Part shown: positions 1,670-10,318 of the stretch, piece by piece
Position numbering within the stretch: the stretch's first letter is position 1
How the letters are laid out: every line of letters starts with the position of its first letter
Origin: an uncultured Gammaproteobacteria bacterium
GTDB taxonomy: Bacteria > Patescibacteriota > Patescibacteriia > UBA2591 > UBA6264
Direction: 5' to 3'
Assembly (NCBI GenBank): GCA_964507075.1
Contig: CAZDOL010000005.1
Location: 12,164 to 23,336, forward strand
DNA: 11,173 nt
The notes under the pieces: model-generated
The model's input: the letters and a program-made list of their open reading frames with translations, nothing else
The model's database searches: none
What the model was told of the DNA's origin: nothing
Made by a program: the position numbers and the translations under genes

Positions 1670-1702
1670 AAAAAGTTTGGGAACTCGGTTCCCAAACTTT
1701 TT
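1670..1702. terminator. Perfect-palindrome bidirectional terminator
   Basis: AAAAAGTTTGGGAAC (1670-1684), loop TCG, then GTTCCCAAACTTTTT (1688-1702). This is a perfect 15-bp inverted repeat with an A5 tract on one side and a T5 tract on the other. It lies 20 nt downstream of the stop of the minus-strand 1722-2039 gene and also backs up the plus-strand terminator. Confidence 0.78.
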
Positions 1703-1721
1703 ATTTCTCTATTAAATTCTA

Positions 1722-2039
1722 TTATTTCAAAGCAGACATAAATTCAGTAGTAAAAACATCCAGAGCTTTCTTCACTATCTCTTCATAGTTCTCAATCCGA
1801 GAGCTAAAAAACTCCTGCACTTTGGGATCTTTAGCATCTGGGTTCTCCCCTAGTAATTTCTCATAATCAGCCAAACCTTTATCATCTAAAGCATCCACTG
1901 AAACCAAACCCAATCTTCGCTGGATTTGTTCCATTAGTTTATTTTTATAAAGTTCTAATTCTTCTTCTGGTAAAGTAATGTTTGCTTGCTGAATTAAGCT
2001 ATCAGCAAAAGCTTCTATTGGATTTTTTTCTTCAGTCAT
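1722..2039 (-). CDS. Small acidic, probably all-helical protein of unknown function, partner of the giant protein
   Basis: The 105-aa ORF has no hydrophobic segment and is rich in E/D/L/K. The pattern ITLPEEELELYKNKLMEQIQRRL...LDDKGLADYEKLL...VQEFFSSRIENYEEIVKKALDVFTTEF recalls a small-protein family common in CPR genomes. I believe that family is catalogued as a DUF (possibly DUF5663), but this is unverified memory. It lies 56 nt downstream of the giant gene with no convincing promoter or terminator between them. Confidence 0.72.
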   Translation of the reverse strand: MTEEKNPIEAFADSLIQQANITLPEEELELYKNKLMEQIQRRLGLVSVDALDDKGLADYEKLLGENPDAKDPKVQEFFSSRIENYEEIVKKALDVFTTEFMSALK

Positions 2040-2095
2040 AATAATAATTTATTATAAATTTATAATTTTAAATTAATTAATATACAACCCCTAAA

Positions 2096-5000
2096 CTATA
2101 CTGCATTTATAATAGATCCTGGCATTAGTTGTTTAGCTTTTTCTAGGACTCCATTAATAAGCTTTTGTTGCTGCTCAATAAGAGAATTCATATTGCTATC
2201 CACTAAAGTGTTCGGCGTCCTATTCATTAACTCTTCAAAAGAGTTCATCATACCCGCATGTTCTGTAACCATATTATTTAGCACATTTCTTTGAGTTTCT
2301 ACCGCAGAAAATGATTGCTCCAAAATTGTTTCTTGCCCCGCAATCTGCTCTGCAATATCACCACTATGAAAAAAACGACGCATTGAGCCCCATAAGCCTG
2401 AGGCATCTTTTAGGTTTGTTAATGACTCTAAATTTCCACAAGCAGTATTACATGCATCTGTAGTTTGAAGCAGGCTTCCTTCTGAAAAAGTACTAATAGC
2501 GTCGCTTACACTCTTTATGTTTGTGCCTAATTCCGTCGCTCTATTTTGTATTTCACCACCCAACAAAGAAGACGTTTCTGTAACCTTCTTAACAAACTCT
2601 GCGCCAACTTCGTCGGTCCCACTAAGCAAACGAGCAGCTTCAACTAAATTTTCATTCCCCACCTTACCTATTCCCTGATCTATAACAGAACCAAAAACTT
2701 CTGGATTATGGAGTATAGTCTGTATTTGTTCTGGAGAAGCTTCCGCTCCTATCACTCCAACCGCTCTTTCTTGTATTTCTTGAACAAATCCTGAACCACA
2801 CTGATCGGGGCCTCCCATAATATTCACAGTCCTAAACAATTCTTTGCTGGTTGAGCCATCTATGTCTTTCATTACCTCTCCAATGAATTCGCGATTAGTA
2901 GCAATATTTTTTAAATCTTCTGGCGATAAAGCATTCGCTTTTTCTAGCGCTTCATTCACATCAGTATCTTCAAAAATTTTAGTAAAGTTTAAATCATCCC
3001 CTATCTTCAAAGAGCTAGCATCTCCACCATCAATTCCAACCAAAGCAGGATTTGCCGCCATTTTATCTTTGTATAAATCTATCAGATAATCTTTCTTAGA
3101 TTGGTCTAGTTCGTCCCAACCAGGCACTCTTGGCTTTAATTGATGTTCAGCTAATTTCCAAGATGTATCTCCTTCTTTAACTTTCACGGTTGAATATTTA
3201 GCCATTTTCTCTTCAAACTCTTTTCGGCTTTTCTCTAACTCTTCATCTAAATTAACCTTTGATTCTGTATCTAATGGCACTTTTTCGACTGGTTCTGTCT
3301 TTCCTGGCACTTTTTCGACTGGTTCTGACTTTAAATTTTTCTCGGCAGCCATTTTTTCTTTTTTCTCTCGCATTTTGTCACCGATAAAATCACTTATCAG
3401 ATAACCTGCGGCTCCACCAACAATACCGAAACCATATTTTAATATTTTAGAACGTTTTTGAGCACTTATCCTTTTCTTAACAGATTCTTCAAGGGCGTCA
3501 TTGGTCTTTTCTACATATCCCTTTTCGCCATCTTGTTTATTGCCCAAAAGCTTGTCTAATTTTGTTCTATCAATATCAAAAATTTTATCTTGCAATTTAG
3601 CATGCTCTATTGGATTAGATGCTTTAAATTTTGGGTCTGCAAGTTGTGCTTTAGCTCTAATAATTTCTTCTGGATTATCCATATTTAAATTTTCTGCCGA
3701 AATCTGACCTAATTCTTTAAATCTTTTACTTTTTGATATATACAAATCAGCAGCTGCTGAACCCAATTTCACTCCAGCATAAGCCATTAAAATATTTCTG
3801 ACTAATGGACATGACCTTGCCAATACACCAGCAATAGCAAATATGCCAGCCGTAACTAACTTCTCTCTGGTCTGATTATCTCCTGTTTTAGCTCCTCCCA
3901 AAAACACAGGACTACTTAGAAATGAATCTATTTTTGAAAAAATTTTACCAGCCAAACTTGCTTTGCGCTTAACAAAACCAAGTTCCATAATTTTCTGATT
4001 ATCTTCTAATTCCACTAATTGCGCGGACAGTTTTACTCTTTTTTCTATATCCTCTGGACTCAAACCTCCATCCTGCTCTGTTAGATATTTTTTAATTTGC
4101 TCTTTATGAAACTCTCTTCTCTTGGCATAAAGTTCTTGTAATTTCTTTTTTGATTCAGGATCTTTGGGGTCATACGCTTTCTCTAAATCATTAATTTCTT
4201 TACCTATAGCAGTATGTTCCTTGCTTTCTCCATCAATTTGATTTTGTTTTTCTATTGATAATCTAACTGAAATATCATCATAAAAATTATCAAGCATATT
4301 ATCCATTTCTTTTTTGTCTTCTTTAGACATATCTACTATATCTGCTTTACTCATATCTCCTAAAAGCATATATTTTACTTCGGCCGCGGCCTGTTCTCTG
4401 GCTTGGCGTTCCTTTTTACCATTCAAAAGAGTTTCCACAAGCCTGCCAACACCAATGCCAATGCCAGCGCCAATACCACCCGTAACCGCGCCCAAGGCAA
4501 TGCCACCAATACCATAAAGTGCTATTTTCCCAAGAGCTTTACCCCATTTTTTCCACTTAGATTCTTTACCTGATTTTTTCTTTTTTGTATTTTGATAAAC
4601 AATTTTTTCTAATTTAGCTTTTTGTGTATCTACAATTTTTTGAACCTCTTCTTTGGGAAGATCCATCTGTTCTGATAAAGCATCAATCTTATCCTCATAT
4701 GCTTTATTTTTATCTTGATCCTCTTTTTCGTAAGATAGCGTCATTAAATTTTTAATTTCTGCTTCGCACATTTCTTTAACATTTTCTTTATCGACAAATT
4801 TCACTTTCTCTTTTAATTTTGTCTTTTCTTCTTCGCTGATATCTTCCCTTAAGTCAATTTTTGTTTCATAAAGCATTTCTTTGTCTTCCATGGCTTTCCG
4901 ATTGGCTTCGTCTTCTTTTGCTTTTTCTTCAGGAGTCATCTCCTTGGGACCTTTTGATTTTTTATGTTTAGTGGTATTTTCTACGACTTCTGATTGTTCT

Positions 5001-5809
5001 TCTTTTTTTAACTTACCATTAAGTTCTTCTAATTTTTCTTGTAAATATTTTTCCATCTCTGGAAGATTTCTAAAATCCAAAAGACTTGCGTCTTCGCCAT
5101 TTTCCATTTTATATATCTTTCTGGTGATATCTCCAATTTTTCCTGGGTCTTTGCTCTTGAGAGCTTCTTGAATTTCTTCCATTAACTCTTTGTCTAGTGA
5201 TATTTCTCTCTCTGTAGATACTCCTGTATCCGTGGTTTCTGTACTTTCTGTTTTTTCCTCGGGCTCTCCTGTATTCATGGTTTCTGTATCTTTTACTGTT
5301 TCTTTTGCTTCTTCGGATTTTTTACCTTTAATCACAATCTCTTCTAATTTTTGATTTAATTCAGCAATATCTGTATCTATTGCCGCATTAGTTTCTTTTA
5401 ATTGGCCTCCGCGCAACAATCCCTCATTCGTTTCTTGGGTTTTTTGTTTTTGTTTGATTAAACCTAAAATTTTGGTAGCTCCACTATATTTATCCAAACC
5501 GTCCTGTAGTGTTAATGTTTTATCTTTAATCTCCTGAATATCTGTATCTATTGCCGCATTAGTTTCTTTTAATTGGCCTCCGCGCAACAATCCCTCATTC
5601 GTTTCTTGGGTTTTTTGTTTTTGTTTGATTTGGCTTTGAGAAAAAATAATGTTTTCCTCAGATTGTTTAAGAAAACTTTTAAATTCATCAACTGAATCAA
5701 ATCGCGCTAAAGATTGAGGATCTTTAGCTTCTTGCTCTTTGTTTTCTATATTATCAGAGTTCTTGACATCCTTTCCAGAATCTTTTGGAATATTTTTTTC
5801 CATATTCAT
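2096..5809 (-). CDS. Giant (1237 aa) polytopic membrane protein of unknown function: charged coiled-coil N-terminal region, Gly-zipper TM segments, Pro-rich linker, LysM-like module, unrecognised C-terminal domain
   Basis: An uninterrupted 3.7-kb ORF with its own promoter candidate. There is no signal peptide, and the N-terminal ~420 aa are K/E/D-rich. Hydrophobic segments: ALGKIALYGIGGIALGAVTGGIGAGIGIGVG (DNA ~4440-4545), LVTAGIFAIAGVLA plus ILMAYAGVKLGSAAADLY (~3740-3859), and ILKYGFGIVGGAAGYLISDFIG (~3381-3446). After these come the EPVEKVPGKT/EPVEKVPLDT linker, a LysM-like stretch (2984-3196) and a ~295-aa G/S/T/N/Q-rich C-terminal region. Confidence 0.9.
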   Translation of the reverse strand: MNMEKNIPKDSGKDVKNSDNIENKEQEAKDPQSLARFDSVDEFKSFLKQSEENIIFSQSQIKQKQKTQETNEGLLRGGQLKETNAAIDTDIQEIKDKTLTLQDGLDKYSGATKILGLIKQKQKTQETNEGLLRGGQLKETNAAIDTDIAELNQKLEEIVIKGKKSEEAKETVKDTETMNTGEPEEKTESTETTDTGVSTEREISLDKELMEEIQEALKSKDPGKIGDITRKIYKMENGEDASLLDFRNLPEMEKYLQEKLEELNGKLKKEEQSEVVENTTKHKKSKGPKEMTPEEKAKEDEANRKAMEDKEMLYETKIDLREDISEEEKTKLKEKVKFVDKENVKEMCEAEIKNLMTLSYEKEDQDKNKAYEDKIDALSEQMDLPKEEVQKIVDTQKAKLEKIVYQNTKKKKSGKESKWKKWGKALGKIALYGIGGIALGAVTGGIGAGIGIGVGRLVETLLNGKKERQAREQAAAEVKYMLLGDMSKADIVDMSKEDKKEMDNMLDNFYDDISVRLSIEKQNQIDGESKEHTAIGKEINDLEKAYDPKDPESKKKLQELYAKRREFHKEQIKKYLTEQDGGLSPEDIEKRVKLSAQLVELEDNQKIMELGFVKRKASLAGKIFSKIDSFLSSPVFLGGAKTGDNQTREKLVTAGIFAIAGVLARSCPLVRNILMAYAGVKLGSAAADLYISKSKRFKELGQISAENLNMDNPEEIIRAKAQLADPKFKASNPIEHAKLQDKIFDIDRTKLDKLLGNKQDGEKGYVEKTNDALEESVKKRISAQKRSKILKYGFGIVGGAAGYLISDFIGDKMREKKEKMAAEKNLKSEPVEKVPGKTEPVEKVPLDTESKVNLDEELEKSRKEFEEKMAKYSTVKVKEGDTSWKLAEHQLKPRVPGWDELDQSKKDYLIDLYKDKMAANPALVGIDGGDASSLKIGDDLNFTKIFEDTDVNEALEKANALSPEDLKNIATNREFIGEVMKDIDGSTSKELFRTVNIMGGPDQCGSGFVQEIQERAVGVIGAEASPEQIQTILHNPEVFGSVIDQGIGKVGNENLVEAARLLSGTDEVGAEFVKKVTETSSLLGGEIQNRATELGTNIKSVSDAISTFSEGSLLQTTDACNTACGNLESLTNLKDASGLWGSMRRFFHSGDIAEQIAGQETILEQSFSAVETQRNVLNNMVTEHAGMMNSFEELMNRTPNTLVDSNMNSLIEQQQKLINGVLEKAKQLMPGSIINAV
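3275..3327 (-). repeat. Two tandem 30-nt-period coding repeats (EPVEKVP linker)
   Basis: tggcactttttcgactggttctg occurs at 3275-3297 and again, identically, at 3305-3327. Confidence 0.85.
5366..5630 (-). repeat. Perfect 94-bp direct repeat (2 copies) inside the giant gene, in-frame period 171 nt
   Basis: 5366-5459 and 5537-5630 are identical base for base by my reading. Each encodes IKQKQKTQETNEGLLRGGQLKETNAAIDTDI (residues 61-91 and 118-148). The 77-nt spacer is unique sequence. Confidence 0.95.
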
Positions 5810-5852
5810 ATTTTTAAAATTAAATTATTTATTTTTGACTTTTAATAGTTAT

Positions 5853-5881
5853 AATATAGCAAAAAATAGCTCTTTTGTCAA
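5853..5881 (-). promoter_or_regulatory. Candidate strong sigma70-type promoter for the giant gene
   Basis: The minus strand reads TTGACA (5876-5881), a 17-nt spacer ending in TGC (extended -10), then TATATT (5853-5858). It lies about 45 nt upstream of the ATG at 5809. No SD is visible. Confidence 0.6.
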
Positions 5882-5887
5882 TAAGTT

Positions 5888-5900
5888 GGGGACAGTCCCC
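5888..5900 (-). other. Short GC hairpin overlapping the helicase stop codon
   Basis: GGGGAC-T-GTCCCC (plus strand ggggacagtcccc) is a perfect palindrome. There is no downstream U-tract, so it is not a canonical terminator. It sits directly upstream of the giant-gene -35 box. Confidence 0.3.
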
Positions 5901-8839
5901 TATATTCTATAATCACAAATATTATAAAAATCGCAATATTTGCACAATTGACTAGGATTTGGAGAGAAATCGCTCTTTTCAATTTGTTTAATCCTCTCGG
6001 TTAATTTTTCCCGCATTTTCTCCAATTCTTCGGGTTGAGCCGAGAAAAATACTTTTTCTCCGCTTTCTAAATAATAATAAGTTAAAAGGTTAACTGGCTT
6101 TTGAAATAGAGAATTTAAGGATTGAGAGGCCAATTGATAAATCAAAAGCTGTTCCTTGTCTTCGGCTGTTAATTTACTTTTTGGATTGCCCGTTTTGTAA
6201 TCTATTAGCTCTAGGCCCCCTTTCACAACATCTACTCTATCTATTTTGCCCTTAATCCAGTATTCTCCTAATTTAAAAACAAAATTCTGTTCCACTCCTA
6301 TGACTTGAGGAGGATTCTTAATAAAATCTTCATAAAAATCTTTTAAAATCCTTTTTCCTTTATCTTTGTATTCTTTTCTTTGTTCTTCGCTGTCATACCA
6401 ATCTTCGTTCCATGATTTTTGATATATTTTTAGCAAATCTTTTAATTCCAAGGTATTTTTTTTCTCTGGCTTATCTTTTTTTTCAATAAATAAATTTGTT
6501 TGCACCGCTCCTTTGCCAGCGAGCCATTGCTTAACAAAAATCTGCAAAGTATTGTGAATGGTATTTCCAAAACTAAAAGCTGGTTTTCCTTGTCGTGGAA
6601 GACGAAGTATGAAAGAAAATTTGTATTGCAAGGGACACTTTTGAAAAGCGCTTAGCTGAGAAAAACTAAATTTACTTGGCAAATATATTTTTTCCTTTTC
6701 ATCAACCAATAGGGTCTTTTCGTTGCGCATATAATGGCCAAGAGATGTTAGCCCTGTAAATTTTTGTTTTTCTTCTAATTTTAATTCTTCTAAAAAACGA
6801 GATAATTTTTTCGTAATTTTTCCACCATAATCCTCAGCTGATGTCAAAAATAGTCCGTCTTTGGCACGAGTTAATGCTACATAAAAAAGTCTTCTTTCTT
6901 CCTGTAAATGAACATCTCCTTCTGGAATTGATTCCTTGATTAATTCCAAGGGCAATTCAATTGCCTCTCTTCTGTGAATTGAAGGAAAACGACGGTCCAC
7001 TAAATTAACCACAAAAACCCATCTAAATTCTAATCCTTTGGCGCTGTGCACAGTGGTTATTTTAACTGCTTCTGGGCCAGAGTCTGTTTCAGATGACATA
7101 GACCCAGTATCGCCAGTATCAATCATCAAATCAATCATTTTATTGAAATTGGGCAAAGATTTGTCAAAATTAGCTTCTTCAAAACTCTCTGCTTTCTTAA
7201 AAAATTGATTAAGCCAAAAAATGCTTTGTTGTCCATCCTTCTTTTTAGACAAAATATTCAAATAACCGCTCTCTTGCAGGAATGCGTAGATAATCTTAGT
7301 AATGTTTTCGTTTTTAGCCAATTCAGTGTGTTTTTCAATCATATTTAAAAATTTGACAATTTCTCCAATTGTTTTTTCTGACAATCCTGGGATAATACTA
7401 GCATTTTTCATGGCCTGATAAAAAGACCAACTTTTTTTATTAGCAAAATAGATAAAATTGGACAAATCCTCGTGACTAATCTTTTGATTAAAAATAGGGG
7501 AAGAAAATAAACGATAAATAGATGTGCTTTCTCTATAATTATCCAGCAACCTTAAATAGGCCAAAATATCTAAAATGACTGGTTTGGAAAATAGCCCTCT
7601 GTGAGCTAAAAACTGATAAGGAATATTAGCAAAATGCAGGGCTTGACAAAACATTTCCGCGTGTTTATTCGCGCGAACTAAAATAGCAAAATCATTCCAA
7701 GTAGAATCAGAATTTTCTTTCTTTAAATCAATAATCTTTTTGATAACTAAGCTGGTCTCGTCCTCTTTGGTTTTAGCGTGAAAATGCCTGATTTCAGCTT
7801 TTCCTTTTCTTTCTGCCTCAAGCTTTTTGATTATTCCTTTGTATTGCGCCTCCAAACGAGCAGGATTATTGGCCTGGATAAAGTTATAAGATAGGTCTAA
7901 AATATTTTGAAAAGAACGATAATTTTTAATTAAAACGATTTGTTTTGATTTGGGATAATCTTTTTTAAATTGCAAAACATTATTATATGAGGACCCCCGG
8001 AAACGATATACAGATTGGTCATCATCAAAAACTACCGTAATATTATTTTTGGGCTCTAACAACATCTTAAGTAATTCATACTGAGCCCAATTAGTGTCTT
8101 GAAACTCATCAACTAATATATATTTAAATTGCTTTCTGTATTTTTCTAAAATCTGAGGACGATTTTTGAAAAGCTGAATAGTGTAATTAATTAAATCGCC
8201 AAAATCAAGCGCGTTATTGTCTAAAAGCAACTGCTGATAAGTATGATAAGCTTGAGATACTTCTTGTGCCCTGGCCGCTTCTTGGTTAAGGGCTTCGCCA
8301 GACATTGAAGAATCATTATTAAGCTTAAGGTTTTCAGCATAAGACAAATAATCAACAGGAGTAATCAATTCATCTTTAGCGCGAGAAAAATGCTTCATCA
8401 GAGCGGAAATAAATTTAGTGGGATTTCCTAAGGGACGATAATAATCAAGATTAAATTTATTAAAATTTTGCTGAACCAAAAAGGCCTGTTGGGTTTCGTC
8501 CAATAATTTAAAATCAATAGGCAAACCAATATCTAAAGCGTGCTCTTCTAAAATCCTTTGACAGAAAGAATGAAAAGTAGAAATCCAAAGCTCAACATAG
8601 CCATAGGGTAAGAGCCTATCAACCCTTTCTTCCATTTCCTGAGAAGCTTTGTCAGTGAAAGTCAAAGCCAAAATTTCTTCTGGTTTCGCCAACTTTTGCT
8701 CAATCAACCAAGCAATACGTCGAGTAATAACAGTTGTTTTGCCTGTGCCAGCACCAGCAATAATCAAACAAGGACCATTTTTAAAAGTCACTGCTTGTTT
8801 CTGTTCTGTATTCAAATTTTCTAAAACATTCTTTTTCAT
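5900..8839 (-). CDS. UvrD/PcrA-type SF1 ATP-dependent DNA helicase fused to a C-terminal Cas4/AddB-like 4-Cys PD-(D/E)XK nuclease
   Basis: All SF1A helicase motifs are present. They are Q-motif LNTEQKQAV, I AGAGTGKT (8735-8755), Ia ILALTFTDKASQEM, TFHSFC, II ILVDEFQDTN and III VVFDDDQSVYRFRGS. They continue with IV IKNYRS, AILVRAN, V TTVHSAKGLEF and VI ERRLFYVALTRAKDGLFL. The nuclease module (~5903-6690) has FSFSQLSAFQKCPLQYKF (Cys at 6635-6637), GKIDRVD...LELIDYKTG (6189-6251), QLLIYQLA and C-terminal CKYCDFYNIC (5915-5944). That gives the C...CxxCx5C pattern of [4Fe-4S] nucleases. Confidence 0.92.
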   Translation of the reverse strand: MKKNVLENLNTEQKQAVTFKNGPCLIIAGAGTGKTTVITRRIAWLIEQKLAKPEEILALTFTDKASQEMEERVDRLLPYGYVELWISTFHSFCQRILEEHALDIGLPIDFKLLDETQQAFLVQQNFNKFNLDYYRPLGNPTKFISALMKHFSRAKDELITPVDYLSYAENLKLNNDSSMSGEALNQEAARAQEVSQAYHTYQQLLLDNNALDFGDLINYTIQLFKNRPQILEKYRKQFKYILVDEFQDTNWAQYELLKMLLEPKNNITVVFDDDQSVYRFRGSSYNNVLQFKKDYPKSKQIVLIKNYRSFQNILDLSYNFIQANNPARLEAQYKGIIKKLEAERKGKAEIRHFHAKTKEDETSLVIKKIIDLKKENSDSTWNDFAILVRANKHAEMFCQALHFANIPYQFLAHRGLFSKPVILDILAYLRLLDNYRESTSIYRLFSSPIFNQKISHEDLSNFIYFANKKSWSFYQAMKNASIIPGLSEKTIGEIVKFLNMIEKHTELAKNENITKIIYAFLQESGYLNILSKKKDGQQSIFWLNQFFKKAESFEEANFDKSLPNFNKMIDLMIDTGDTGSMSSETDSGPEAVKITTVHSAKGLEFRWVFVVNLVDRRFPSIHRREAIELPLELIKESIPEGDVHLQEERRLFYVALTRAKDGLFLTSAEDYGGKITKKLSRFLEELKLEEKQKFTGLTSLGHYMRNEKTLLVDEKEKIYLPSKFSFSQLSAFQKCPLQYKFSFILRLPRQGKPAFSFGNTIHNTLQIFVKQWLAGKGAVQTNLFIEKKDKPEKKNTLELKDLLKIYQKSWNEDWYDSEEQRKEYKDKGKRILKDFYEDFIKNPPQVIGVEQNFVFKLGEYWIKGKIDRVDVVKGGLELIDYKTGNPKSKLTAEDKEQLLIYQLASQSLNSLFQKPVNLLTYYYLESGEKVFFSAQPEELEKMREKLTERIKQIEKSDFSPNPSQLCKYCDFYNICDYRI

Positions 8840-9547: not shown

Positions 9548-10318
9548 TTAATGCTTTTTTATGCGTAACATATTTTTAAAATACGCCCAATGCCATGAGA
9601 TATGAAATATTGAAATTACAAACATTGCTATGCCAATTTCAACATGCCAAAACAGAATATTAAAAGGCAATGGAATTATTGAACCAAAATTAATTCTCAC
9701 AATTAATAAAATACCTAATATTCCAGAAATTAAAAATGTAATAAGTAATAAAATATTCCAAATTTTCCTGTGAGTTATAATCTTAATAATTTTTTTCTTA
9801 GATAAGATATGACTAATAAAATATAAAACGATTAGAAATAAAGAAATTGACAAAAGATGATAAACTCCTTTATTTTCCTCTTCATTCGCCTCTACCACAT
9901 CTATTGGCGTCCCAAGTTTTATGGATGCGGCAATACCTTTCACTATGCTTGGCTCCATACCATAATTATCATGCAAAAGTTGAAAAGAATAATTAGGATT
10001 TATTTTTGAACCATAATATTCTGATAATTTTTCTGCATACTTATTCGCCTCAATTTGATAAATTTCAGCAACCTCACTCACAGTTTTTGATTTTAATTCA
10101 CTGCCACTTATCAAATTATCAACATTTTCTTCCGAAACTCGGACCCTGCTCTCAGGAGCTGGCTGAGAGTGGTCGCATATTCCGTCATTATCAGTATCTA
10201 TAAATAACTCGCATTCCTCGTCACATAGAGTTTTTCCTACTGGACAATCTTCCCACGCCAAAGCTACTGCAGGGATTAGAGATAGTAAAGGCAAAACAAA
10301 GATTATTTTTTTCATCAT
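9548..10318 (-). CDS. Secreted/membrane protein: signal peptide, Cys-rich DxDxDG segment, soluble domain, and a C-terminal 3-TM His-bearing module (possibly DUF4405/cytochrome-b-like)
   Basis: Signal peptide MMKKIIFVLPLLSLIPAVALA (10256-10318). It is followed by WEDCPVGKTLCDEECELFIDTDNDGICD, where DTDNDGICD (10172-10198) matches a thrombospondin-type-3/DxDxDG Ca-binding loop. There are three TM helices at residues ~152-173, 186-207 and 221-246 (DNA 9581-9865). They carry H154, H170, H225, H239 and H243, including WHVEIGIAMFVISIFHISWHW. Confidence 0.8.
   Translation of the reverse strand: MMKKIIFVLPLLSLIPAVALAWEDCPVGKTLCDEECELFIDTDNDGICDHSQPAPESRVRVSEENVDNLISGSELKSKTVSEVAEIYQIEANKYAEKLSEYYGSKINPNYSFQLLHDNYGMEPSIVKGIAASIKLGTPIDVVEANEEENKGVYHLLSISLFLIVLYFISHILSKKKIIKIITHRKIWNILLLITFLISGILGILLIVRINFGSIIPLPFNILFWHVEIGIAMFVISIFHISWHWAYFKNMLRIKKH

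Follow-up and report, generated by a model that had tools for sequence, protein, structure and literature searches.

A conserved DUF5663-giant protein module as a candidate envelope scaffold of Patescibacteria

Why would a bacterium keep the gene for a small acidic protein beside the gene for a giant of more than a thousand residues? This question is raised by an 11,173-nucleotide (nt) stretch of contig CAZDOL010000005.1 (positions 12,164 to 23,336; assembly GCA_964507075.1) from a patescibacterial genome, the whole of which we call the window. Its reverse strand carries a giant gene (2096-5809; 1237 amino acids (aa) plus stop), an AT-rich intergenic gap of 56 nt (2040-2095), and a gene for a 105-aa protein (1722-2039). 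A sequence-only reading of this DNA had proposed that the two genes form a dedicated pair, and had compared their layout with that of chaperone/substrate and toxin/immunity pairs. Here, we report that the small protein belongs to the family DUF5663 and that its linkage to giants carrying two modules, M1 and M2, is real and conserved, a conclusion that we hold with high confidence. We also discuss, more tentatively, how the module might work at the cell envelope.

Linkage of DUF5663 to the giant protein

The 105-aa protein belongs to the Pfam family PF18908 (DUF5663): it scores 29.3 bits, above the cut-off of 23.7, and covers profile positions 8-84 of 84. The partner proteins at two distant loci, L025 and L026, also score above the PF18908 gathering cut-off (loci in other genomes carry L numbers throughout). 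In agreement with the earlier description of the small partner as acidic and helical, the protein has an isoelectric point of 4.4, and its structural model shows five helices at a predicted local distance difference test score (pLDDT) of 87.6; it lacks a signal peptide. When both proteins were searched against Pfam, NCBIfam, PHROGs and PADLOC, DUF5663 was the sole match. A fold search of the DUF5663 model against the PDB returned no structural neighbor (best E-value (E) of 1.4). None of about 8 million papers searched mentions DUF5663 or PF18908, and a literature search with the accessions of module members also came back empty. DUF5663 is a catalogued family without an assigned function, and its fixed linkage to M1/M2 giants appears to be undescribed.

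In the close clade of the window, the gene order is helicase, giant, DUF5663. These genomes share general synteny, and we therefore also examined the linkage in distant loci. Contig searches with the DUF5663 alignment, which used narrow patterns, gave 3 loci, while those with the M1 alignment gave 7. At every locus with flanking DNA present, DUF5663 adjoins a giant that bears M1 and/or M2; in the three loci without a DUF5663 call (L016, L020 and L024), the contig ends exactly at the expected DUF5663 position. The adjacency occurs in nine contexts with different neighbors, namely the window with L001 and L005, L007 with L009, L006 with L013, and L019, L021, L022, L023, L025 and L026, each in a context of its own. 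Two gene orders occur: either the giant precedes DUF5663, or DUF5663 is followed by a gene for a helical protein of about 60 aa and then by the giant.

The neighbors differ markedly among these contexts. In L006/L013, with CorA and cysteinyl-tRNA synthetase genes upstream and MurB downstream, an 897-aa protein is followed by a DUF5663 protein 57% identical to that of the window; an alignment of the L006 protein with the window giant spans aa 306-1016 of the latter (33% identity, E=2e-95). The 1263-aa M1 giant of L019 has rpsB nearby and is preceded by DUF5663 and the ~60-aa gene. The same order is found among glycosyltransferases in L021 (65-aa gene, 2405-aa giant), near ATP synthase and PheST genes in L022 from Kerfeldbacteria (118-aa DUF5663 homolog, 63-aa gene, 2209-aa giant), between Lgt upstream and rplT downstream in L023 (63-aa gene, 1378-aa giant), and with various neighbors in L025 (55-aa gene and a 1666-aa "M2-only" giant). 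In L026, also with various neighbors, a 1475-aa M2 giant precedes DUF5663. Thus, in five lineages (L019, L021, L022, L023 and L025) DUF5663 lies upstream of the giant, kilobases away from its C-terminus. Because the adjacency outlasts full neighbor turnover and inversion of the order in nine contexts, the linkage is probably selected for. The dedicated pair suggested from the window alone is in this sense strongly supported by synteny elsewhere, reversed order included. The module adjoins rpsB-tsf or infC-rpmI-rplT/pheST, and in the window its base composition resembles that of its flanks. It is most likely a vertically inherited part of the core genome, Patescibacteria-wide.

The additional small genes, encoding proteins of about 55-65 aa, lie between DUF5663 and the giant in L019 (6211-6414), L021 (5779-5976), L022 (5817-6008), L023 (4782-4973) and L025 (4832-4999). 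Their products are helical and mutually homologous (EKIxRIxEIYxxFxxExxxL...), and have no Pfam match. The distance from this middle gene to the giant start is about 1-51 nt, or the two overlap by 8 nt. A counterpart, free-standing or fused, was not detected in the window and L006 clades, and a Rosetta-stone search found no giant with a fused DUF5663 or ~60-aa protein. The two-gene unit described earlier is consequently accurate for the window clade, but most of the distant lineages insert this third gene.

The two linked genes evolve at very different rates. Identity of DUF5663 to its clade homologs is 79-93%, and that of the giant core is 45-69%. Compared with the window, L001 shows 92% identity for DUF5663, 85% for ribosomal protein S2, 91% for the helicase and 50% for the giant core; L007 shows 80% for DUF5663, 74% for the helicase and 47% for the core; and L019 shows 41% for DUF5663, 49% for S2 and 30% for the core. 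Judged by these identities, DUF5663 is under housekeeping-level constraint and evolves as slowly as S2, with the giant evolving about five times faster. A separate observation concerns L011 (CAZTWG010000011.1), binned in a Gammaproteobacteria metagenome-assembled genome. It carries a DUF5663 protein of the candidate phyla radiation (CPR) type, 89% identical, and its S2, EF-Ts and PSP1 genes are ordered as in Patescibacteria loci; this contig is probably mis-binned.

Transcription signals and modules of the giant

Upstream of the giant, a promoter-like site on the reverse strand (5853-5881) reads TTGACA-17-TATATT with an upstream TG (extended -10). With 11 of 12 matches it is the top-scoring site of the region, although the region shows no excess of promoter-like sites in general (7 found vs 14.6 expected). 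Its -35 TTGACA is unchanged, and the extended -10 retained, in six relatives, among them L001, L004, L005, L007 and L017. Downstream of DUF5663 on the same strand, a terminator hairpin (1670-1702) has a 15-bp stem flanked by A/T runs, could act bidirectionally, and shows compensatory changes at 10 of 14 pairs in a comparison across six loci. Both signals had been pointed out in the sequence-only reading, and their conservation bears it out. Because promoter and terminator are conserved, both genes of the window clade are probably carried on a single promoter-to-terminator transcript.

The same reading had found nothing convincing between the two open reading frames (ORFs). This is correct insofar as no hairpin occurs within the 56-nt gap (34-60 nt in relatives), but a conserved TATAAT-like hexamer lies inside it, about 11 nt 5' of the DUF5663 ATG. 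Likewise, the unit is self-contained in the window clade but not elsewhere, since in L006 the DUF5663 stop is only 6 nt from murB.

We next turn to the giant itself. We ran a profile of aa 415-1045 in an exhaustive HMMER search, and the 401 proteins that it matched at E<=1e-3 allowed the giant to be split into modules, all given here on the reverse strand and in the aa numbering of the window giant. Word-index homology searches, limited to 8000 candidates, reached no further than the close clade, whose homologs are 44-66% identical to the giant. The first 299 residues (4913-5809) are clade-specific, highly charged and signal-less, and a profile of them found no protein outside the close clade. 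They are followed by a conserved helical extension (aa 300-414; 4568-4912; KEMLYxTKIDL...KVKFVNKE), which has seven matches outside the clade and can be aligned to the L006 protein. The highly charged N-terminus of ~420 aa without a signal peptide, described earlier, is indeed seen in the translation.

The family-defining M1 core (aa 415-830; 3320-4567), delimited by profile search, contains a Gly-zipper segment, a KQNQIDG motif, a second hydrophobic hairpin, an NPxEY motif and a third Gly-rich segment. Segment 1 (aa 425-462; 4424-4537) has a central invariant TGG and polybasic flanks, and the GxxxG runs noted before can be read in the translation at aa 433-455. Hairpin 2 (aa 650-691; 3737-3862; TAxIFAxAGxLARxCPxVRNxLxAYAGxKxG) is near-invariant, forms the best-conserved stretch of the giant and was found in 51 proteins by profile search; it is modeled as helix-turn-helix, with low confidence. 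Segment 3 (aa 788-809; 3383-3448) is weakly hydrophobic and is the candidate N-in/C-out anchor. A Pro-containing spacer lies at aa 826-846 (3272-3334). The "Pro-rich linker" of the sequence-only reading thus exists, but it amounts to a short EPVEKVP x2 repeat in the translation, and the length and sequence of the spacer differ among homologs.

M2 (aa 871-945; 2975-3199), which 151 of the 199 proteins gathered here possess, is followed directly by a conserved helical tail (aa 946-1045; 2675-2974; 82 proteins). The clade-specific C-terminal domain (aa 1046-1237; 2099-2674) is modeled as a long three-helix bundle at a pLDDT of about 88. The C-terminal ~140-190 aa are mosaic among homologs, and the last ~140 aa of the giant are common to P0002 and P0022 only. 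The same two proteins keep a CxxxC motif (TDACNTACG) found in this helical domain (aa 1114-1118; window 2453-2467).

The giant has no match in Pfam, NCBIfam, PHROGs, PADLOC or PDB sequences, and a Pfam scan revealed no recurrent domain in 30 M1-bearing or 46 M2-bearing relatives. End to end it thus corresponds to no characterized family, in line with the sequence-only reading, which had recognized none. All named family members are annotated as "hypothetical protein" and belong to Patescibacteria (Parcubacteria, Kerfeldbacteria, Komeilibacteria and Nomurabacteria). No curated family matches M1, the ~60-aa protein or M2 in its LysM-derived form, and, judged against the obvious analogs discussed below, the module fits no known kind of system.

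Two further observations were made on the giant gene. Its N-terminal coding region contains a perfect 94-nt direct repeat (5366-5459 and 5537-5630; spacing 171 nt, or 57 codons), which encodes a duplicated 31-aa motif, IKQKQKTQETNEGLLRGGQLKETNAAIDTDI, within aa 1-299; homologs carry both copies, diverged. At the DNA level the two window copies are 100% identical, which points to a gene conversion event in the recent past or to an effect of the assembly. In L013 (3253-5953), the giant ortholog is broken into ORFs of 430 and 477 aa, where its L006 relative is one 897-aa ORF, which indicates a frameshift, pseudogenization or an assembly error.

How might this protein relate to the membrane? Only two segments reach a Kyte-Doolittle hydrophobicity (KD) >=1.6, at aa 425-462 (1.68) and aa 652-691 (1.75). 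Conserved turns interrupt both (the invariant T443-G444-G445, and R665-x-C667-P668), and because each is broken in this way, they look like helical hairpins. Segment 3 (aa ~788-809) stays below KD 1.2 in the scan and reaches about 1.1 by hand calculation. The description of the giant as polytopic is therefore not established, and because hydrophobicity is marginal, both in much of the family and in segment 3 of the window giant, membrane insertion is not secure. Nevertheless, the 15 aa before the most hydrophobic pre-M2 segment carry 3.9 Lys and Arg residues and the 15 aa after it 1.6 (n=123, paired Wilcoxon p=4e-16). No hydrophobic segment was found C-terminal to M2 in 129 proteins, and the spacers preceding M2 are variable and often contain Pro. 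Together, this charge asymmetry, the lack of a post-M2 hydrophobic segment and the variable spacers fit an N-in/C-out anchor, which is the topology that we predict for the giant.

The LysM-like module proposed earlier corresponds to M2. A trimmed M2 profile matches the solved LysM proteins SafA (7r1l) and LytE (8i2e) with a whole-sequence E of about 2e-4. SafA residues 2-15 (YTVKPGDTMWKIA) align to M2 positions 5-18 and SafA residues 23-47 (EIIAANPQ...LIYPGQKINIP) to M2 positions 46-73, while the LytE repeats align to the first of these pieces. In the AlphaFold model, DSSP assigns a strand (875-876), two helices (883-894 and 903-919) and a second strand (939-940), at a pLDDT of about 60-80. 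Two motifs thus appear to be common to M2 and LysM, in identical order: VxKGDSVWKxA at beta1/alpha1 and ANPxx...LxxGxKIxx at alpha2/beta2. It differs by a helical insert of ~27 residues between the two halves and by the helical tail of ~100 aa after them. In addition, Pfam LysM (PF01476) has no match at E<=1 to the window giant, although it matches 2 of the 46 M2 relatives (best E=1.8e-4). The profile match and the modeled fold point toward the LysM-like assignment, but the Pfam model does not. M2 is best read as a domain derived from LysM, with a beta-alpha-alpha-beta layout into which a helical stretch of ~27 residues is inserted; this reading is partly supported, and wall binding by M2 is putative.

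Two other resemblances of M2 were set aside. Matches of the M2 profile to TAL effectors (E about 1e-9) are summed sub-threshold repeat matches in which no single stretch passes; in the M2 tail, aa 955-975 show a non-significant resemblance to the TAL effector repeat LTPEQVVAIASN. Similarly, the resemblance of the insert (aa 897-915) to the protein A helix motifs LNEEQRNAFIQSLKDD is sub-threshold, its summed score being a repeat artefact.

Candidate functions of the module

We tentatively propose that the module is an envelope-spanning scaffold with one or more conserved cytoplasmic partners, encoded in the core genome, and we would put the chance that this is right somewhat short of even. The working that we envisage, taken by itself, is held with a shade more caution. 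The structure of the genes, their boundary signals, the homology and modules of the proteins, synteny and evolutionary rates are shown by the data above, whereas we infer how the giant is oriented in the membrane, that M2 binds the wall, that the two proteins interact and that their genes are co-transcribed. The module would consist of DUF5663 and the M1/M2 giant, plus the ~60-aa helical protein in most of the distant lineages. The giant would act as a scaffold spanning the envelope, with the M1 core and the charged, coiled stretch of ~420 aa at its N-terminus on the cytoplasmic side, and the two Gly/Ala-rich helical hairpins of M1 in or on the membrane. The last Gly-rich segment would cross the membrane N-in/C-out, so that the variable spacer could display the LysM-derived M2 to the cell wall, with the fast-evolving helical tip outside. 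DUF5663 would be a cytoplasmic acidic five-helix protein that works together with the conserved region of the giant. It would either connect this region to conserved cell machinery, as an adaptor, or serve the hydrophobic hairpins as an assembly or holdase factor. The envelope reading draws on the LysM-like features of M2, on the charge asymmetry and on the lack of a hydrophobic segment after M2, and also on genes with envelope functions that, by inspection, often lie near the module (MurB, Lgt/DsbA, glycosyltransferases, Peptidase_M23/S11, DivIC).

A related precedent is offered by the polar landmark proteins FimV and HubP, which combine a LysM domain, one transmembrane helix and a huge acidic cytoplasmic region. 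The giant may have like ingredients, namely a LysM-type module that putatively binds the wall, an anchor in the membrane and, on the predicted topology, a very large cytoplasmic region that is acidic, contains repeats and could recruit partners. However, its order is reversed, with the acidic part N-terminal and the LysM-like part C-terminal, and it has neither a signal peptide nor the FimV C-terminal motif. We therefore rejected membership of the FimV/HubP family, to which neither Pfam nor NCBIfam gave a match.

Several observations weigh against the proposed scaffold. The charge test rests on related, non-independent sequences, and in the window clade the segment that it selects is hairpin 2, not segment 3. 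Pre-M2 segments that reach KD >=1.6 occur in only about half of the family, and 40 of the 129 proteins have none. M1 is modeled at a pLDDT of only 20-60. Since the giant has no signal peptide, the export of ~430 aa would hinge on a late internal anchor. As for M2, the Pfam LysM model is blind to the window giant, and the SafA/LytE match is made of two collinear pieces, each weak when taken alone (independent E about 2). Finally, the hexamer in the gap may leave room for separate transcription of DUF5663 or for an extra internal promoter.

The same features can be read in other ways. The giant might be an effector that is exported or that enters the membrane of a partner cell with its bilobed hydrophobic hairpins, with DUF5663 (and, elsewhere, the ~60-aa protein) shielding these hairpins as chaperones. 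A chaperone/substrate pair, one of the layouts named in the sequence-only reading, is conceivable. Small acidic helical proteins encoded beside a large helical protein that has two hairpin-like segments of ~35-40 aa and no signal peptide would suit this idea, as would the fast, clade-specific N- and C-termini, which are expected of surface or host-facing parts. A Foldseek search of the giant model against the PDB also placed the ClyA-family pore formers SmhB, AhlB, AhlC and YaxA on top, but none of these matches is significant (best E=0.2, template modeling score (TM-score) <=0.38, root-mean-square deviation about 25 Å). We rejected a ClyA-family alpha-pore-forming toxin on these values, which were obtained on the low-confidence part of the model and are thus a weak test, and keep the resemblance as a lead only. 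Type III secretion translocators with their class II chaperones (IpaB/IpgC), chlamydial Inc proteins and ClyA-family proteins are alike in that a large helical protein carries hydrophobic hairpins in its center and is encoded next to a small acidic helical protein, the last being a trait of type III-type chaperones. The module differs from them in its core-genome location and in lacking any sequence or significant fold similarity. Moreover, no secretion-system genes occur in the flanks of the examined loci (the search covered flanks, not whole genomes), and DUF5663 matched no chaperone family in Pfam or NCBIfam. The module has genes for ribosomal proteins and tRNA synthetases around it and appears to be inherited vertically, and a LysM-type wall module suits a resident envelope protein better, so we rate an effector as unlikely. 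A wholly cytoplasmic scaffold, with the Gly/Ala-rich helices buried or peripheral and M2 serving protein contacts in, for example, the organization of division or the nucleoid, would account for the marginal hydrophobicity, including the 40 of 129 relatives that lack a KD >=1.6 segment before M2. It would equally account for the conserved Arg, Asn, Lys and Glu within hairpin 2 and for a giant without a signal peptide. The best LysM match of M2 is SafA, whose LysM acts in protein-protein contacts (spore-coat SafA/SpoVID). Nevertheless, such a scaffold is also unlikely, if anything a little more so, given the strong positive-inside charge asymmetry, the variable Pro-containing spacers ahead of M2, the fast evolution of the terminal domains and the polybasic stretches beside the hydrophobic segments.

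The remaining explanations are far less probable. That DUF5663 is an independent housekeeping gene which stays beside the giant without a shared function would agree with the very different evolutionary rates, with the possible -10 element of its own in the gap, and with L006, where it runs straight on into murB. An adjacency kept in nine contexts despite neighbor turnover and inverted order makes this very improbable. The toxin/immunity layout to which the sequence-only reading had likened the pair, with a polymorphic toxin of variable C-terminus and DUF5663 as its immunity protein, finds some echo in the mosaic C-terminal ~140-190 aa and in the small acidic gene directly downstream in the window clade. 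LXG toxins with their Lap partners (type VIIb secretion) and polymorphic toxins resemble the module in these respects, with one or two small helical genes beside a large protein of variable C-terminus. However, the conserved part of the giant is central rather than N-terminal, it has no LXG, WXG or toxin domains, and DUF5663 does not co-vary with its C-terminus: DUF5663 is 93% identical in L005, which has the window type of C-terminus, and 92% in L001, which has another. It evolves as slowly as S2, staying at 79-93% identity where the giant core drops to 45-69%, and it is encoded upstream of the giant in five lineages. No toxin, immunity or defense family matched in Pfam, NCBIfam or PADLOC, and the C-terminus is modeled as a plain helical bundle. 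This explanation is thus largely refuted, with only a very slim chance left to it. Slimmer still is the chance of a prophage remnant encoding a tape-measure-like protein and its assembly chaperone, for which one could cite the length and helical nature of the giant, its Gly-rich hydrophobic segments and its wall-related module, together with a few tape-measure proteins among weak viral fold matches. Those matches, from BFVD, have a TM-score <=0.11 and a root-mean-square deviation above 40 Å; there was no PHROG match, no tblastn match among 50,697 phage records and no M2 relative in IMG/VR. The flanks of the loci contain no phage genes and show no link to defense or secretion systems.

Returning to the envelope scaffold, one could extend it further. 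DUF5663, the ~60-aa protein and the M1/M2 giant might together form an unrecognized, Patescibacteria-specific envelope apparatus that occurs across Parcubacteria-type lineages, is embedded in the membrane, binds the wall, meets the environment or a host with its fast-evolving tip and is coupled by its strictly conserved cytoplasmic partner to core machinery. We see this as possible, if on the doubtful side, and a role in host attachment is speculation.

Surrounding genes and meaning of the module

The gene upstream of the giant (5900-8839, reverse strand) encodes an AddA/AddB-like protein of 979 aa in which a UvrD-type helicase is fused to a PD-(D/E)XK nuclease. Within the clade its identity is 71-92%, and there it precedes the giant without exception. 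Right after its stop, and just before the giant promoter, lies a short GC hairpin, GGGGACAGTCCCC (5888-5900), which is partly conserved in relatives and has no T-run, and would be a weak terminator at best. On the other side, a convergent ORF on the forward strand (1042-1608) encodes a 188-aa protein with a hydrophobic N-terminal segment and heptad repeats NTTxIDx (aa ~50-100). This ORF is a neighbor in most of the clade, yet merely 32-58% identical, and has only weak PHROG and JetC-like matches. A second hairpin (1623-1653) is its conserved terminator and stands back to back with that of DUF5663. Further away, a 256-aa protein (9548-10318, reverse strand) starts with what resembles a signal peptide, contains the Cys-rich stretch CPVGKTLCDEECELFIDTDNDGICD and has several hydrophobic helices toward its C-terminus. 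The protein has no family match; it is 78% identical in L001-L003, and a partial match of 85% in L005 covers 21% of the query. Rfam and tRNA scans of the whole window gave no match.

Patescibacteria (CPR) account for a large fraction of bacterial diversity. Little is known of their envelope, division and host-contact machinery, and many of their conserved genes carry a hypothetical annotation. Here, two anonymous ORFs have become a defined module, with M1, M2 (at least 151 representative proteins), DUF5663 and, in most lineages, a third gene, and DUF5663 gains its first functional context. If the module were only a mundane scaffold, the gain for annotation would remain, in the form of three new families and one domain variant. 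If it is an essential machine of the envelope or host interface, it would mark the lineage and offer a way into the biology of CPR bacteria. And should it prove to be a Patescibacteria-specific envelope apparatus, it would be no accessory gene pair but a part of the cell biology that defines the CPR lineage.

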